A stretch of 64,000 nucleotides of DNA, from the IMG/VR virus record IMGVR_UViG_3300044988_000363; one strand, given 5' to 3'. The translations under genes were made by a program, and so were the position numbers. Shown piece by piece: positions 436 through 37,968 of this stretch; the first letter of the stretch is position 1, and each line of letters opens with the position of its first letter. A model generated the notes under the pieces. That model was not told where the DNA came from. It ran no database searches and saw only the letters and a program-made list of their open reading frames with translations. This stretch comes from a virus.

Positions 436-2289
436 CTAAAAACTGCCACCATCCAATATATCATAGACTAAAGCTGTTCCGTTAGACTGCAGAACATATC
501 CGCTAGTGCCAAGTGTTAATTCGTTATATCCATTGGTTGAGTTACCTACCAATAATGCATTATTAGTTACTGTTGCCTTTCCAGTACCACCGGAAGTTCC
601 TGCAAGAGCAGTGGCAAGAGTAAGAGTATTAGCAACAATGCCAACAGAATATGTAGAATTGGCTGTTAAATTAGCTGATGTTGTATTAGTGGTAAGAGCA
701 CCGGAAGCTAGATATGCGACAAGAGTTGCTGTTCTATATGATGCATCGTTAGTATCTACATCATTGTTACCAGATAGTTCTTGTTCTAGATTAAAGAATA
801 GCTTCCATAATCCATCAGTATGATCCCTAAATAAACCAGTATGACGGTTTGCACCATCATTGTAGTTTGCAGCAAAACCAATATCGACTAAATCGCTGGA
901 ATAATTGTTACCAGCAAGGTATATCATTGGGTCAGAAACAATAACTGATTGAACATTTTGAGTTACTAGATTGCCAGTAACAGTTAGAGTTCCTGCAACA
1001 CTGACATTTGAGCCAAATGAAGCTCCATCTGTGGTACTAATGTGATTAACATATATATTGGCCCAACGTAAAGAGTTCGAACCCAAATCATAGCTATTGT
1101 TTGTGGTTGGGATAATAGCTGTGTCGATACGAGCATTAAATGTTACTTTGTCAGAAGTTGCATCACCAAGAGTTGTATTACCATTAACTGATAAGTCAGT
1201 GGTAACGACATTTGCGAATGTTACGTTAGAAGTTGTAGCTACCGGCTGTCCGATGAAAACACCAGTGGCATTAACGGTAACACCAGTGTTGCCAACAACG
1301 TTAATACCGGAAGAGTCAACGCTGATACCATTAGCAGCCTTTGCCCATGTACCAGAAGTATTAGAAACAATACCATTATTAGCTAAAACGCCAACACCAG
1401 AAGCATCGACATAAACACCATTAGCAGGGTCAACGTAAGTACCAGTAGTGTTAGCAATAATACCGTTGTTAGGAAGAACGCTTACGGCTGTTGCATTAAC
1501 CGAAATACCAATACCAGCACCGACATCAATAGTGATATCGCCTACGCTACCACCACCATTTAGACCGTCTCCAGCAGTGATGCTCGAAATATCACCAACG
1601 TCGTCTGCCCAATATGTGCTAGAACCGTTTGTTCTAAGAACCTGATTGGCTGTACCAAGAGAACCATTAACAGAAAGACCAACACCTGTTCCGATAGTGA
1701 CTTGAGTAACATTTGCTTTAAAATTAGAACCAACACTAATTGTAGCGCCATTAACTGTGCCTGTAGCGAAAACTCCAATAGAATTAGCAACTACATCAGT
1801 TCCAACAGTATGAGAAGCAGCATTAACAGTTGTTCCAAATAAATTGTTGGTGGTAATAGTATTACCGATTGCAAGCGTGTTAGAAGTTTTGACAAATGTA
1901 AACCCAGCAACACCATTAGCTACGCCAGAATCATTGAACTGAACATAAGTGTTTGATCCAGAGGTACCTGTACCCCAATAAACGCCGCCTGAAGAATTAA
2001 CAACTAGAACCTGCCCATTTGAACCGGCAGATCCATTTGCGACCAAAGATGTAATTACCGCATTGGCAACAATAACTTTATCAATACCGCTTGTAGAGTT
2101 GGCTACAAGGGCATGATTAGCAGTCAGAGTACCAGGATACTGAGCGCCACCAACACGAAGGACACCCGACCCGTCTGGAAGACCAATATAAAGCGTATTA
2201 GAGGCTTGAGTAAAGGCTAATTCGCCGTTTGATAGTCCAGTAACTGTAGCGTTGGACGTAGATCTTTTAATCTGAATCTTATTGGCCAT
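436..2289 (-). CDS. Tail fibre / virion structural protein
   Basis: N-terminal KIQIKRS...GELA motif of fibre N-termini, G/N/T/V-rich beta repeats, C-terminal LDGGSF. Confidence 0.7.
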   Translation of the reverse strand: MANKIQIKRSTSNATVTGLSNGELAFTQASNTLYIGLPDGSGVLRVGGAQYPGTLTANHALVANSTSGIDKVIVANAVITSLVANGSAGSNGQVLVVNSSGGVYWGTGTSGSNTYVQFNDSGVANGVAGFTFVKTSNTLAIGNTITTNNLFGTTVNAASHTVGTDVVANSIGVFATGTVNGATISVGSNFKANVTQVTIGTGVGLSVNGSLGTANQVLRTNGSSTYWADDVGDISSITAGDGLNGGGSVGDITIDVGAGIGISVNATAVSVLPNNGIIANTTGTYVDPANGVYVDASGVGVLANNGIVSNTSGTWAKAANGISVDSSGINVVGNTGVTVNATGVFIGQPVATTSNVTFANVVTTDLSVNGNTTLGDATSDKVTFNARIDTAIIPTTNNSYDLGSNSLRWANIYVNHISTTDGASFGSNVSVAGTLTVTGNLVTQNVQSVIVSDPMIYLAGNNYSSDLVDIGFAANYNDGANRHTGLFRDHTDGLWKLFFNLEQELSGNNDVDTNDASYRTATLVAYLASGALTTNTTSANLTANSTYSVGIVANTLTLATALAGTSGGTGKATVTNNALLVGNSTNGYNELTLGTSGYVLQSNGTALVYDILDGGSF

Positions 2290-35859: not shown

Positions 35860-36261
35860 CTAATCCTTGATTGTGATTGTCGTAGATTCACCTTTGGTCA
35901 TATTGTAAAGAGTGTAAGCGTTATTTGGACTCAACCGAACGCATCCGTGACTAGCAGGTCGACCCAAATTGCCCACGTGAGGGGTAGCATGAATAGCATA
36001 ACCACCAGAAAAGAATATAGAGTGCGGCATGGGAGCATTGTCATATTTCTTTGAATAATGTATAGGCTGATAAGAATAAGGGCGGAAAGTTCCAGTTGGC
36101 GTATAATATCCCTTCCGGGCTGTAGATACTGGCCAACGTTCAATTAACTCTCCATCCTCGTAAATTGTCATTGACTGGCTGCGTTTCGAAACTACTATAT
36201 CATAGTTTGCTAGAGCAGAGGTAGAGAATAGAACTAATGCAGAGATCAGTAGTTTGTTCAT
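35860..36261 (-). CDS. Secreted L,D-transpeptidase (YkuD family)
   Basis: Signal peptide; WPVSTAR...TPTG...YAIHAT...LGRPASHGCVRL catalytic motif. Confidence 0.9.
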   Translation of the reverse strand: MNKLLISALVLFSTSALANYDIVVSKRSQSMTIYEDGELIERWPVSTARKGYYTPTGTFRPYSYQPIHYSKKYDNAPMPHSIFFSGGYAIHATPHVGNLGRPASHGCVRLSPNNAYTLYNMTKGESTTITIKD

Positions 36262-36743: not shown

Positions 36744-36820
36744 TGGCGATCCCGGCACGATTCGAACGTGCGACCCACAGATTAGAAGTCTGTTGCTCTA
36801 TCCAGCTGAGCTACGGGACC
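36744..36820 (-). tRNA. tRNA-Arg(UCU)
   Basis: GGTCCCGTAGCTCAGCTGGATAGAGCAACAGACTTCTAATCTGTGGGTCGCACGTTCGAATCGTGCCGGGATCGCCA; cloverleaf with encoded CCA; TTGCTT...TATAAT promoter upstream. Confidence 0.95.
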
Positions 36821-37077: not shown

Positions 37078-37235
37078 AAAATGCGACTGTTCTGTTTCTA
37101 GGTCAGTCGCCAACCCAATGAGGATTAAGCTGCTAGAGCGTAACCTTCAAATGATGCATCATTATCGTTTGCATCTACGTTTCGCCTTTGGTCTCCTCGA
37201 AGCCTTAATGTAGATAATCGAGCCTATACACCCCC
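37078..37235 (-). ncRNA. ssrA: tmRNA coding piece (permuted two-piece ssrA)
   Basis: Starts GGGGGTGTATAGGCTCGA; tag frame 37172-37125 = ANDNDASFEGYALAA*; ends in a GCGACTG/CAGTCGC hairpin plus T-tract. The 3' end is approximate. Confidence 0.9.
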
Positions 37236-37236
37236 A

Positions 37237-37701
37237 TCATAAACTGACATATGGATTCGTTTTTTTCATAACAGATTTTAATCTACCACGAACCCAATCT
37301 TTAGGATAATCCTCTAAAGAGAACTGTCCTTCGGAAACGCCATCATTGAACCAATATCTCTTGTTTCTAATTTTTCTGCCATCTGTTCCTTTTTCATAAG
37401 GAGAAGGAACGCCTGATCTTATCCATTTACCAGTGGCAGATTTCTTACCATTTCCCCATCTAATAGCATTGGTTATTGCAGCGCCTTTTTTTGCTCCTTC
37501 ACGAATTGCTATAAAAGTGCATTCGTCAGAAGTAAGAAGACCTAACAAACCTTTCCAAGCCAATAAATCTTGCCAGTGACCATGTGTTTCATATAAAACT
37601 CTATGGGCTTCGGCATGTTCTTCAATAGTAAGTTCTATCAAGTTATTTGGTTCATCTGTTCCGCCTAAATGTTTGGGAACAATATGATGTATGTGTTTCA
37701 T
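37237..37701 (-). CDS. HNH homing endonuclease inside the tmRNA intervening segment
   Basis: HIHHIVPKHLGGTDEPNNLIELTIEEHAEAH motif; AGGAGG SD; C-terminal WFNDG...GRL module. Confidence 0.88.
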   Translation of the reverse strand: MKHIHHIVPKHLGGTDEPNNLIELTIEEHAEAHRVLYETHGHWQDLLAWKGLLGLLTSDECTFIAIREGAKKGAAITNAIRWGNGKKSATGKWIRSGVPSPYEKGTDGRKIRNKRYWFNDGVSEGQFSLEDYPKDWVRGRLKSVMKKTNPYVSL

Positions 37702-37703
37702 TT

Positions 37704-37743
37704 AATCCTCCTGTCAATCATACTTATTTATAATAGACAGGAT
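37704..37743 (-). promoter_or_regulatory. Late promoter TATAAATA in the loop of an RBS-sequestering hairpin (HNH gene)
   Basis: TCCTGTC-tatTATAAATAagtatgatt-GACAGGA(GG); TATAAATA at 37725-37732. Confidence 0.8.
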
Positions 37744-37755
37744 TTTATCAGTTTA

Positions 37756-37824
37756 TGGTGGAGGTGAGGGGATTCGCACCCCTGTCTTACCAACCTATAT
37801 GCTAAGTCTCAACGACCTCGGCAA
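37756..37824 (-). ncRNA. ssrA: tmRNA acceptor piece (permuted two-piece ssrA)
   Basis: ...GACAGGGGTGCGAATCCCCTCACCTCCACCA; CACCTCC pairs with GGGGGTG including G3:U70, discriminator A; AATAAATA at 37829-37836 upstream. The 5' end is approximate. Confidence 0.9.
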
Positions 37825-37968
37825 ACTTTATTTATTCTTTTGGAATTTCGTTTTCAAATTCTTCAATTAGGGGATGTGGTGGTTCTTTAGTGGCACGGTC
37901 TGTTAGAACTGTCCCGTACAATGCACTTACCGACGGTCGCCAACTCAGCGCAGCCAGCAACACCCAGA

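Follow-up and report, generated by a model that had tools for sequence, protein, structure and literature searches.

A putative HNH homing endonuclease gene in the intervening segment of a permuted phage tmRNA gene

To our knowledge, homing genes are thought to survive inside other genes only where an intron or intein is removed, and otherwise to lie between genes. SegB of phage T4 is a free-standing homing gene that, like the gene described here (P0001), belongs to a T4-like phage and sits amid stable RNAs cut from a longer transcript without splicing; also like P0001, it has a predicted late promoter and a hairpin that sequesters its ribosome-binding site, and its product recognises a conserved motif of the tRNA T stem-loop (PMC2330249; PMC2988022). 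SegB is, however, a member of the GIY-YIG family located between two separate tRNA genes of a tRNA cluster, whereas the present locus has an HNH gene between the halves of one RNA that pair across it, with the end of the open reading frame built into the pairing. Similarly, MobA-E of T4 and MobE of Aeh1 are free-standing and, like P0001, join an N-terminal HNH domain to a distinct C-terminal part; Aeh1 mobE also combines a hairpin that hides the ribosome-binding site with late transcription (PMC2988022). Weak full-length relatives of P0001 found by tblastn, about 29-34% identical, are annotated as 'mobile endonuclease' in T4-like phages. The Mob genes nevertheless lie in or between genes for proteins, nrd among them, and none has been reported inside an RNA gene (PMC2988022).

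Homing genes that reside within a tmRNA gene and are removed at the RNA level are known from group I introns in the T loop, some of which carry LAGLIDADG genes; these are self-splicing ribozymes in one-piece genes whose exons are ligated (PMC11915505). Here, in contrast, there is neither a ribozyme nor a ligation, and the end-processing of a permuted gene would remove the insert. Permuted ssrA genes of alphaproteobacterial type lie just upstream of the gene for the late-transcription coactivator gp33 in the OM43 phage Melnitz and in pelagimyophages (PMC9004378). The window, by which we mean the whole 64,000-nucleotide stretch of IMG/VR record IMGVR_UViG_3300044988_000363, and its relatives share this tmRNA-gp33 synteny with these marine T4-like myophages, but no gene has been described within the intervening segment of the Melnitz or pelagimyophage tmRNAs (PMC9004378). 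In Melnitz, the 3' end also bears a glutamine riboswitch (PMC9004378), for which the window gave no Rfam match. A 2025 tmRNA database paper lists permuted tmRNAs with cargo in the spacer, namely a tRNA-Ala and a repetitive element, and the spacer can therefore tolerate large or structured inserts; these are single oddities consisting of an RNA gene or a repeat, and no protein-coding or homing gene is mentioned (PMC11915505).

The preliminary description of the locus knew of no precedent, and we found no published description of a homing gene in a permuted tmRNA spacer in the searchable literature. With a probability of roughly 0.78, we read the locus as a working, circularly permuted tmRNA gene of alphaproteobacterial type from an uncultured marine T4-like myophage, whose spacer a free-standing HNH homing endonuclease gene has colonised. 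Processing and aminoacylation of the RNA, like the cleavage of DNA, are inferred only.

The tmRNA gene and its split stems

All features discussed lie on the minus strand, where the 3' tRNA-like half, ending in CCA, precedes the nuclease gene and the 5' half follows it. The Rfam model RF04321 (tmRNA_permuted) matches 37817..37125 over its full length of 1-213 with 52.8 bits (E 1.8e-7; gathering score 47), and its alignment places the nuclease reading frame in one single insertion. This establishes at the profile level the permuted two-piece tmRNA that had been proposed at these coordinates from the letters alone. The acceptor piece (37756..37817, 62 nt, model positions 1-63) reads GGTCG...CACCTCCACCA from 37817 to 37756 and contains the 5' strands of the inter-piece helices, the T arm (37783..37767), the 3' acceptor strand CACCTCC and an ACCA that ends at 37756. 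The coding piece (37080..37235, model positions 87-213, 3' end approximate) starts with the 5' acceptor strand GGGGGTG (37235..37229) and holds the 3' strands of the inter-piece helices, the tag reading frame and, at about 37117..37083, a hairpin or pseudoknot region; its 3' stems covary in alignment A4. Between the pieces lies the 520-nt intervening segment with the nuclease cassette (37236..37755), delimited as the insertion in the Rfam alignment, which by analogy with other permuted tmRNAs would be missing from the mature molecule.

The tag frame GCA...TAA (37125..37172) encodes ANDNDASFEGYALAA followed by a stop, as found by direct reading, by Rfam and by ARAGORN on a shortened spacer. Its translation would resume at an alanine codon and it ends in a hydrophobic degradation signal, as is asked of a tmRNA tag, and the tags of 17 relatives follow the pattern ANDN...(A/L)AA with 12-15 residues. 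The acceptor end at 37756, the spacer length, the complete HNH reading frame, the GGGGGTG at 37235 and the tag were all re-read as first given. Both Rfam and ARAGORN had been suggested as checks, and only the former succeeded outright: on the native sequence ARAGORN calls a tRNA-Arg and no tmRNA, but after in-silico removal of 490 nt of spacer, a construct made for analysis only, it reports a 'Permuted' tmRNA with exactly the tag ANDNDASFEGYALAA. The tRNA-Arg(UCU) (36744..36820; Rfam tRNA 66.6 bits) lies 260 nt downstream of the tmRNA, and tRNAs also follow the tmRNA in L120, L121, L126, L138, L142 and L169.

A comparison of 19 alleles shows that the two pieces belong together. The 7-bp acceptor stem formed between the pieces is 100% paired in all 19, with three covarying pairs, and the G3:U70 pair associated with alanine identity is kept throughout, so that the fully paired stem noticed in this single sequence holds across the set. 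The T arm is 98.9% paired and also has three covarying pairs, and the inter-piece helices are paired in 96%, 72% and 80% of cases with three, one and no covarying pairs, respectively. Taking all stems together, 92% of cells pair, compared with 38-44% when the partners are slid, and none of 500 shuffles reached the observed covariation. The pairing of the split stems is far beyond chance.

Spacer ends, transcription and proposed removal of the cassette

The spacer is closed by a helix that extends the acceptor stem. Its 5' arm (37746..37756) begins at the last A of the CCA and pairs with 37249..37239; the 3' arm (37239..37249) coincides with the codons GTC AGT TTA at the end of the nuclease gene and with the first base, T, of its stop, ATAAACTGAT(A) at 37756..37746 being complementary to (T)GTCAGTTTAT at 37249..37239. 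Complementary spacer ends overlapping the last HNH codons had been proposed before, and they gain considerable weight here: the helix of 10-12 bp is present in the minimum free energy fold of the 693-nt precursor (z = -4.3), is 94.7% paired among the 19 alleles and changes on both sides at 7 of 10 pairs. In L126 and L130, for example, the codons read GTT or ATT followed by TCT TTA, leaving serine and leucine unchanged, and the 5' arm has moved from CTGA to GAAA to match.

A wider survey of viral alleles refines this picture. Among 76 short-spacer alleles, 52 have a helix of at least 10 bp and 45 a TGAT directly 5' of G1; among 26 long-spacer alleles the counts are 24 and 22. The nuclease stop codon is the TGA of this conserved TGAT. 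Since both elements are found in most short-spacer alleles too, they would appear to be parts of the phage pre-tmRNA itself, to which the nuclease gene has adapted and which it did not create. A long leader-trailer helix beside the acceptor stem could, however, be a hindrance to RNase P and not a help.

We propose that the acceptor piece, the nuclease gene and the coding piece are transcribed as one precursor, in which the acceptor stem and the closing helix would fold and loop out the 520-nt cassette. RNase P would then cut before G1 (37235), and tRNA-type 3' trimming would halt at the CCA (37756), freeing two mature tmRNA pieces without splicing; maturation of two-piece tmRNAs by tRNA-processing enzymes is described in the literature (PMC11915505; PMC9004378). 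The original idea that the gene is looped out of an extended acceptor stem and removable by end-maturation is supported at the level of sequence and comparison, and processing itself remains inferred, as does homing, because no usable RNA ends are available. Two RNA runs, of which small shares could be searched as assembled contigs, cover only 37754/37756..37835/37867. These contigs turn to unlike sequence right after the CCA and must come from another allele; without spacer or coding piece, they say nothing on processing or expression at this locus.

Two regions could drive transcription. Upstream of the tmRNA gene, 37829..37857 contains TTGAAA (37857..37852), 17 nt and TAAATA, the latter overlapping AATAAATA (37836..37829). 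The relatives have TTGACA or TTGACT-N17-TATAAT(AAATA), a sigma-70-type promoter overlapping a late-like motif, equally far from the acceptor piece. The presence of AATAAATA was correctly noted at the outset, but its interpretation as a late motif needs correction: it is a degenerate form of the relatives' promoter with its overlapping late-like motif, and an early-type promoter whose -10 region it represents is the likelier reading. A simple consensus promoter scan did not call this upstream promoter in the window, and the weakness of this version leaves the origin of the precursor transcript uncertain in this particular phage.

The second region is a hairpin before the nuclease gene (37709..37742), predicted in the minimum free energy fold at precursor positions 76-109 and conserved in relatives. 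Its loop carries TATAAATA (37732..37725), a late-type motif found 24 nt upstream of the nuclease start codon in most gene-bearing alleles; its 3' arm overlaps the Shine-Dalgarno sequence AGGAGG (37712..37707), and it is kept as CCTGTCGAT...ATCGACAGGAG in five to six further alleles (among them L120, L124, L126, L130 and L131). A late promoter within a hairpin that sequesters the ribosome-binding site is the layout documented for delayed translation of T4 I-TevI, I-TevII, I-TevIII and segB and of Aeh1 mobE (PMC2988022), matched here in the letters only. On the precursor the hairpin would hide the ribosome-binding site, which in our proposal keeps ribosomes out of the helix and acceptor strand, which coincide with the last codons or directly follow them. 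Late transcripts starting at TATAAATA within the hairpin would lose its 5' arm and allow translation. With such control of its own, part of the nuclease expression is probably independent of the tmRNA precursor.

These promoters also invite a different account, in which the two tmRNA pieces are separate transcripts assembling in trans without a common precursor: the upstream promoter would yield the acceptor piece and the late promoter in the spacer the nuclease message together with the coding piece, and the nuclease gene would merely stand between two RNA genes, as in a tRNA cluster. The recurrence of TATAAATA inside the spacer of most gene-bearing alleles and the weak upstream promoter in the window fit such an account, and a mature two-piece tmRNA is joined by base pairing in any case (PMC11915505). 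Against it, the nucleotides just after the CCA and those just before G1 form a helix that covaries at 7 of 10 pairs, which indicates that the unprocessed ends must meet, most simply in one molecule. Moreover, a scan of the locus revealed no terminator-like site between the two pieces, and the gene-less alleles are ordinary permuted genes forming a single unit. We consider separate transcripts unlikely, although both routes could coexist, and retain the common precursor as the preferred reading.

The nuclease and its distribution

The HNH gene (37237..37701) encodes 154 amino acids and ends with a TGA at 37239..37237, 1 nt 5' of the coding-piece G1. Its product matches PHROG 655 'homing endonuclease' (E 6.8e-14) and falls just below the cutoff for Pfam HNH (21.0 against 21.4 bits), with no Pfam match besides HNH. 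Modules of the NUMOD type, the sequence-specific DNA-binding part in many members of this nuclease family, are represented by NUMOD3 (PF07460) in more distant relatives. A profile built from 35 relatives matches the HNH domains of solved structures (6me0, 8ydb and others), and beta-beta-alpha-metal motifs superpose locally over 34-39 residues with an rmsd of 0.8-1.1 Å; Foldseek against the PDB yielded short HNH-core matches only, without a significant whole-protein match. Conservation reaches at least 90% at H5/H6 and is complete at N20, H29 and H33; for the C-terminal 60 residues it is limited to relatives located in or adjoining tmRNA genes. The dN/dS ratio is 0.10-0.34, in comparisons of deep divergence where dS is often near or beyond saturation. 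The reading frame is intact, and the ratios show purifying selection on it.

The HNH-less, short-spacer alleles whose existence in related phages had been anticipated were found. In one tmRNA lineage, spacers without the gene measure 68-101 nt and those with it 464-531 nt, and in L142 a decayed remnant of 113 nt keeps only the last ~34 nuclease codons; most other viral two-piece tmRNAs have spacers of 4-171 nt. At least 31 other alleles have a relative of the nuclease in this spacer, distributed over at least 12 different acceptor stems. Among the best 80 relatives of P0001 in IMG/VR, 31 occupy a permuted tmRNA spacer, and another 5 immediately precede one; relatives that have only the HNH domain in common are located elsewhere. 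The acceptor piece of L146, which has the gene, is identical at 62 of 62 positions to that of L138, which lacks it, and the L146 flank is 87% identical to that of the gene-less L137, with homology stopping about 9 nt past the CCA. As the closest gene-less genome is only 87% identical in the flank, the two do not form a near-isogenic pair.

The allele search in IMG/VR relied on degenerate patterns; the exact 27-nt T-arm/acceptor pattern has no match there. In the cultured-phage collection, DNA comparison found no match to the tmRNA or cassette beyond the tRNA-Arg and a 104-nt HNH stretch, protein comparison gave distant HNH relatives only, and no isolate with an HNH gene in a tmRNA spacer was found. 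The gp59 of this phage is about 40% identical to that of a cyanomyovirus.

On the alleles compared, presence/absence polymorphism together with a decayed copy at one fixed site satisfies one criterion for a homing gene, and the homing-type gene first suspected here thereby gains support from gene-less, decayed and gene-bearing alleles and from purifying selection; cleavage and homing are still inferred. The nuclease would nick or cut gene-less alleles of co-infecting relatives, and repair would copy the whole spacer, with the conserved tmRNA pieces as homology arms. The target is probably conserved tmRNA gene sequence, for which there are no cleavage data; the site itself cannot be inferred, as 'CCATAAA...TTTATGAT' occurs in gene-bearing alleles and in some without the gene.

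One may also ask whether the nuclease is kept for a benefit to the phage and not only out of selfishness, through exclusion of co-infecting relatives or through recombination or amplification of the tmRNA/tRNA region. Purifying selection across deep divergence, with dS near or beyond saturation, and the spread over at least 12 acceptor-stem types would agree with a benefit, and T4-type SegB was recently reported to aid immune evasion via amplification of tRNA loci (PMC13096335). Many related phages nevertheless do without the gene and L142 carries a decayed copy, and this pattern of gain, decay and loss is the expectation for a selfish homing gene. We hold a maintained benefit to be quite unlikely as an explanation and continue to regard the gene as a homing gene in a working tmRNA.

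The reading of a working tmRNA has to be weighed against the idea of a relic broken by the insertion, which would leave the nuclease gene as the one part of continuing importance. The native gene goes uncalled by ARAGORN, and some gene-bearing alleles score below the RF04321 gathering cutoff (L120/L121 with 37.1 bits, L124 with 33.7), beside relatives that exceed it (L126 with 55.3, L130 with 49.9, L152 with 114.9 and L180 with 101.1). The low scores are, however, accounted for by the penalty on a long insertion. Gene-less alleles are also permuted, which means that the insertion did not split the tmRNA gene; moreover, gene-bearing alleles differ by changes that compensate each other in the acceptor stem, the T arm and the inter-piece helices, and the tags are still of the proteolysis type. 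A relic is very unlikely, and the missed calls instead imply that long-spacer phage tmRNAs are under-annotated. We give practically no credence to a self-splicing group I or II intron with its own endonuclease. Group I introns, in some cases with a homing endonuclease gene inside, are indeed known from tmRNA genes, but these have inserted into the T loop, their hosts are unpermuted, and the endonucleases are of the LAGLIDADG family (PMC11915505). Here the reading frame fills 465 of the 520 nt, and the noncoding remainder, 54 nt ahead of the start codon and 1 nt behind the stop, is too short for a ribozyme. The group I reading was rejected for want of any intron family match, even at E values up to 1 in related loci.

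Implications for selfish genes in permuted RNA genes

A homing gene in a permuted tmRNA spacer would represent a new kind of safe haven for selfish genes. The architecture of a permuted RNA gene would give removal for free, in that its own end-maturation would discard the insert. The locus also offers a testable dual constraint, in which one set of nucleotides codes for the C-terminus of the protein, provides the stop codon and would form the processing helix, and it points to a candidate family of site-specific nucleases.

More tentatively, the discarded spacer of permuted tmRNAs might serve aquatic T4-like phages generally as a slot for cargo that needs no splicing, occupied by a specialised HNH lineage whose last codons and stop form the processing helix; this extension is possible, but we would not yet favour it. 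If it is true, an RNase P cut 1 nt after the stop would free both an intact tmRNA and a complete, helix-closed nuclease message with its stop codon, and permuted RNA genes would join introns and inteins as a third means by which a homing gene can reside in an essential-type gene without harming it.

A nuclease gene within a permuted tmRNA

On the minus strand of the window, sequence reading places a 62-nt tmRNA acceptor piece, GGTCG...CACCTCCACCA (37817..37756), before a 520-nt spacer (37755..37236) and a coding piece that starts with GGGGGTG at 37235 and holds a tag frame reading ANDNDASFEGYALAA* (37172..37125). The sole ORF of the spacer (37701..37237, minus strand) encodes P0001, a 154-residue HNH endonuclease. 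RF04321, the merged permuted-tmRNA model of Rfam, matches the gene over its full length (37817..37125; 52.8 bits, gathering score 47), with the ORF falling in one single insertion of the alignment. ARAGORN does not call the native gene, but reports a 'Permuted' tmRNA with exactly the tag ANDNDASFEGYALAA once 490 nt of spacer are removed by script, in a construct made only for this analysis; the natural short allele L142 is called as well. The preliminary description of a permuted two-piece tmRNA with an HNH ORF in its spacer is thus supported, by Rfam for the native gene and by ARAGORN only for the shortened one. Two further nuclease-carrying alleles (L120:2885-3583 and L124:1693-2402) reach only 33.7-37.1 bits with RF04321 (gathering score 47); ARAGORN gives nothing for them. 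Standard annotation will overlook nuclease-bearing tmRNA genes of this kind.

The HNH motif lies at the very start of P0001 (HHIVPKHLGGTDEPNNLIELTIEEHAEAH). The protein scores 21.0 bits against Pfam HNH (cutoff 21.4) and matches PHROG 655, 'homing endonuclease', with an E-value of 6.8e-14, while a profile of 35 relatives matches the HNH domains of a group II intron maturase and of Cas8-HNH proteins. H5/H6 are kept in at least 90% of these relatives, all of which share N20, H29 and H33. The protein as modelled by AlphaFold (mean pLDDT 80, with most of residues 1-80 above 90) fits HNH cores locally at an rmsd of 0.8-1.1 Å, with no significant structural match of the whole chain. Pairwise dN/dS is 0.10-0.34 among six cassettes, that is, spacers carrying the nuclease gene.

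The neighbouring genes are of T4 type, namely the gp59 helicase loader, the gp33 late-transcription coactivator and, in relatives, gp32, along with a YkuD transpeptidase and a DUF932 gene. A tRNA-Arg(UCU) is found downstream of the tmRNA by ARAGORN and Rfam (36820..36744). The tmRNA lies just upstream of gp33, the same placement as that of the alphaproteobacterial-type two-piece ssrA in the OM43 phage Melnitz and in pelagimyophages (PMC9004378). No cultured phage is close to the window: megablast yields almost nothing, gp59 is ~40% identical to its cyanomyovirus counterpart, and cultured T4-like phages contain only distant relatives of P0001, annotated as HNH, homing or 'mobile' endonucleases. 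The phage-encoded YkuD-type L,D-transpeptidase (35860-36261, minus strand; Pfam E 7e-23) sits between the tmRNA/tRNA region and gp33, a position kept in the relatives L119-L123.

Selection on the split tmRNA and its closing helix

Alleles of the same tmRNA lineage were gathered from metagenomic contigs with nuclease homologues and by searching IMG/VR with an acceptor-piece pattern. In the resulting alignment of 19 alleles, the structure counted was the Rfam consensus plus the spacer helix proposed earlier. Standard pairs occupy 92.1% of cells, compared with only 38-44% when the 3' partners are slid by 1-3 columns, and none of 500 column shuffles matched the observed covariation. The acceptor stem is paired in every allele, with three pairs changed on both sides (variants include GGGGGTG/CACCTCC, GGGCTGG/CCAGTCC, GGGCTAG/CTAGTCC and GGGGGCG/CGCCTCC) and G3:U in 19/19; the T arm is 98.9% paired with three covarying pairs. 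Tags read ANDN...(A/L)AA in all 17 of 17 relatives. Because these compensatory changes occur among nuclease-carrying alleles, we infer from the comparisons that selection acts on the split tmRNA even while it holds the insert. Past the tag stop, a conserved, two-stem pseudoknot-like structure surrounds GAAACAGAA (37083-37117, minus strand), with stems that covary from allele to allele (window GCGACTG/CAGTCGC, L126 GGTGGGA/TCCCACC); ATTTTCATTTT, which follows it, is a possible marker of where the coding piece ends on its 3' side.

The complementary spacer ends had been read as an extension of the acceptor stem, and this pairing is borne out. Pairing joins the final A of CCA, together with the 9-12 nt that follow, to nucleotides ending 3 nt before G1, the first base of the coding piece (37756..37746 with 37249..37239 in the window, minus strand, read from sequence); over the 19 alleles this closing helix is 94.7% paired, and seven of its ten pairs have changed on both sides. 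When viral two-piece tmRNAs are sampled more widely, 52/76 short-spacer and 24/26 long-spacer alleles have at least 10 bp of this helix in fixed register, and TGAT forms the four bases before G1 in 45/76 and 22/26, respectively. Since short-spacer alleles have the helix too, it is not brought by the nuclease gene. In 17 of 24 distinct cassettes the conserved TGA is the nuclease stop codon, so that the ORF ends 1 nt before G1 and its final codons form the 3' arm of the helix. The ORF ends GTC AGT TTA TGA in the window and L120 and GTT TCT TTA TGA in L126: the peptide VSL is retained although serine is encoded from the other codon family, and in the 5' arm GAAA replaces CTGA, preserving pairing. 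Other cassettes, ending in ...VQL, ...VRL or ...KSL, have 5' arms that match these ends. The same nucleotides are thus under a double constraint, from the protein and from the RNA helix.

Spacer states and inferred mobility of the nuclease gene

Spacers of a single tmRNA lineage differ in length and content. The HNH-less short alleles whose existence the preliminary description had left to be checked were found at 13 loci (68-101 nt, without an ORF). The 113-nt spacer of L142 retains only the last ~34 nuclease codons beside an intact tmRNA, L145 has an unrelated ORF in 293 nt, and L146, L120-L133 and the window carry an HNH gene in 489-526 nt. The acceptor pieces of L146 (with the gene) and L138 (without) are identical at 62/62 positions, and the upstream flanks of L146 and gene-less L137 are 87% identical over 1.8 kb, their homology ending ~9 nt past CCA. 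The spacer evidently hosts other cargo as well, given the ORF of L145:332-851, whose 97 codons (MKSFKNFF...) lack an HNH motif and run through the closing helix into the first coding-piece bases.

Searching IMG/VR with the nuclease alignment and keeping the best 80 loci, a structure scan placed 28 inside a permuted tmRNA spacer, to which Rfam added three (L169, L180, L182); five others are found immediately upstream of a tmRNA with a short spacer (L158, L208, L175, L176, L177). Among these 80, relatives that have only the N-terminal HNH domain in common are located elsewhere. Other collections repeat the pattern, with L152 (freshwater, 55% identity) and L154 inside, L155 beside a tmRNA and L156 elsewhere. 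The C-terminal half thus travels with the tmRNA location, as would be expected if it recognises tmRNA gene DNA, reminiscent of T4 SegB, which recognises a tRNA T-stem-loop motif (PMC2330249). At L155:699-1989, a permuted tmRNA with a short spacer (1435..1172, minus strand; 112.9 bits) has an endonuclease-like gene on either side, an HNH relative of P0001 in divergent orientation upstream (1501-1989) and a NUMOD3 ORF just downstream (699-1121); this layout suggests a homing-gene hot spot at the tmRNA gene.

Expression and proposed mechanism

From CCA to the start codon, six further alleles have the arrangement CCTGTCGAT-(TA/C)TAAATA-...-ATCGACAGGAG in common. The minimum-free-energy fold of the 693-nt window precursor (z = -4.3) contains a hairpin here (37742..37709) together with the T arm, acceptor stem and closing helix; the hairpin has TATAAATA (37732..37725) in its loop and, in its stem, half of the Shine-Dalgarno sequence AGGAGG. 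The same layout has been documented for T4 I-TevI/II/III, segB and Aeh1 mobE, in which the ribosome-binding site is hidden on long early transcripts and late transcripts begin inside the hairpin and are translated (PMC2988022). The cassettes of L163:1190-1673 and L168:1189-1679 have neither hairpin nor TATAAATA; their start codon lies just 10-11 nt past CCA, and there translation initiation would be masked by the closing helix itself, through its 5' arm. In relatives, the stretch upstream of the tmRNA bears a strong sigma-70-type promoter (TTGACA-N17-TATAAT) that overlaps a late-like motif. The late-type motif AATAAATA noted earlier is present in the window, but as part of a weaker TTGAAA-N17-TAAATA, which a promoter scan did not call.

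We propose that the precursor folds such that closing helix and acceptor stem loop the cassette out, after which RNase P would cut at G1 and 3' trimming would stop at CCA, as in permuted tmRNAs generally (PMC11915505; PMC9004378). The proposed RNase P site lies only 1 nt past the stop codon, so excision would leave the ORF of the spacer complete. The hairpin may hold ribosomes off the precursor, since a ribosome finishing the ORF would melt the closing helix and cover the acceptor strand. Expressed from late transcripts, the nuclease would attack gene-less alleles in co-infecting phages, and repair would copy the whole spacer in between the conserved tmRNA pieces. Processing, aminoacylation, cleavage and homing are inferred only: there are no data on the latter two and no RNA-level evidence. 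Contigs assembled from two RNA runs contain only the acceptor piece, followed by a different spacer. That of run X1 matches the acceptor piece and the 18 nt before it at 100% identity (window 37754-37835) and diverges 2 nt past CCA into a spacer starting like gene-less alleles (TAGATACACC...), so the same acceptor piece circulates with another spacer.

In a tmRNA database paper of 2025, homing genes are listed solely for T-loop group I introns, and the only inserts named for the intervening sequence of permuted genes are a tRNA-Ala and a repetitive element (PMC11915505); no spacer genes feature in the phage two-piece tmRNAs that the Melnitz paper describes (PMC9004378). The preliminary description knew of no account of this arrangement, and full-text literature searches returned no published description of a homing gene in a permuted-tmRNA spacer. 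We regard the gene as a homing endonuclease of the free-standing T4 type that occupies a new niche.
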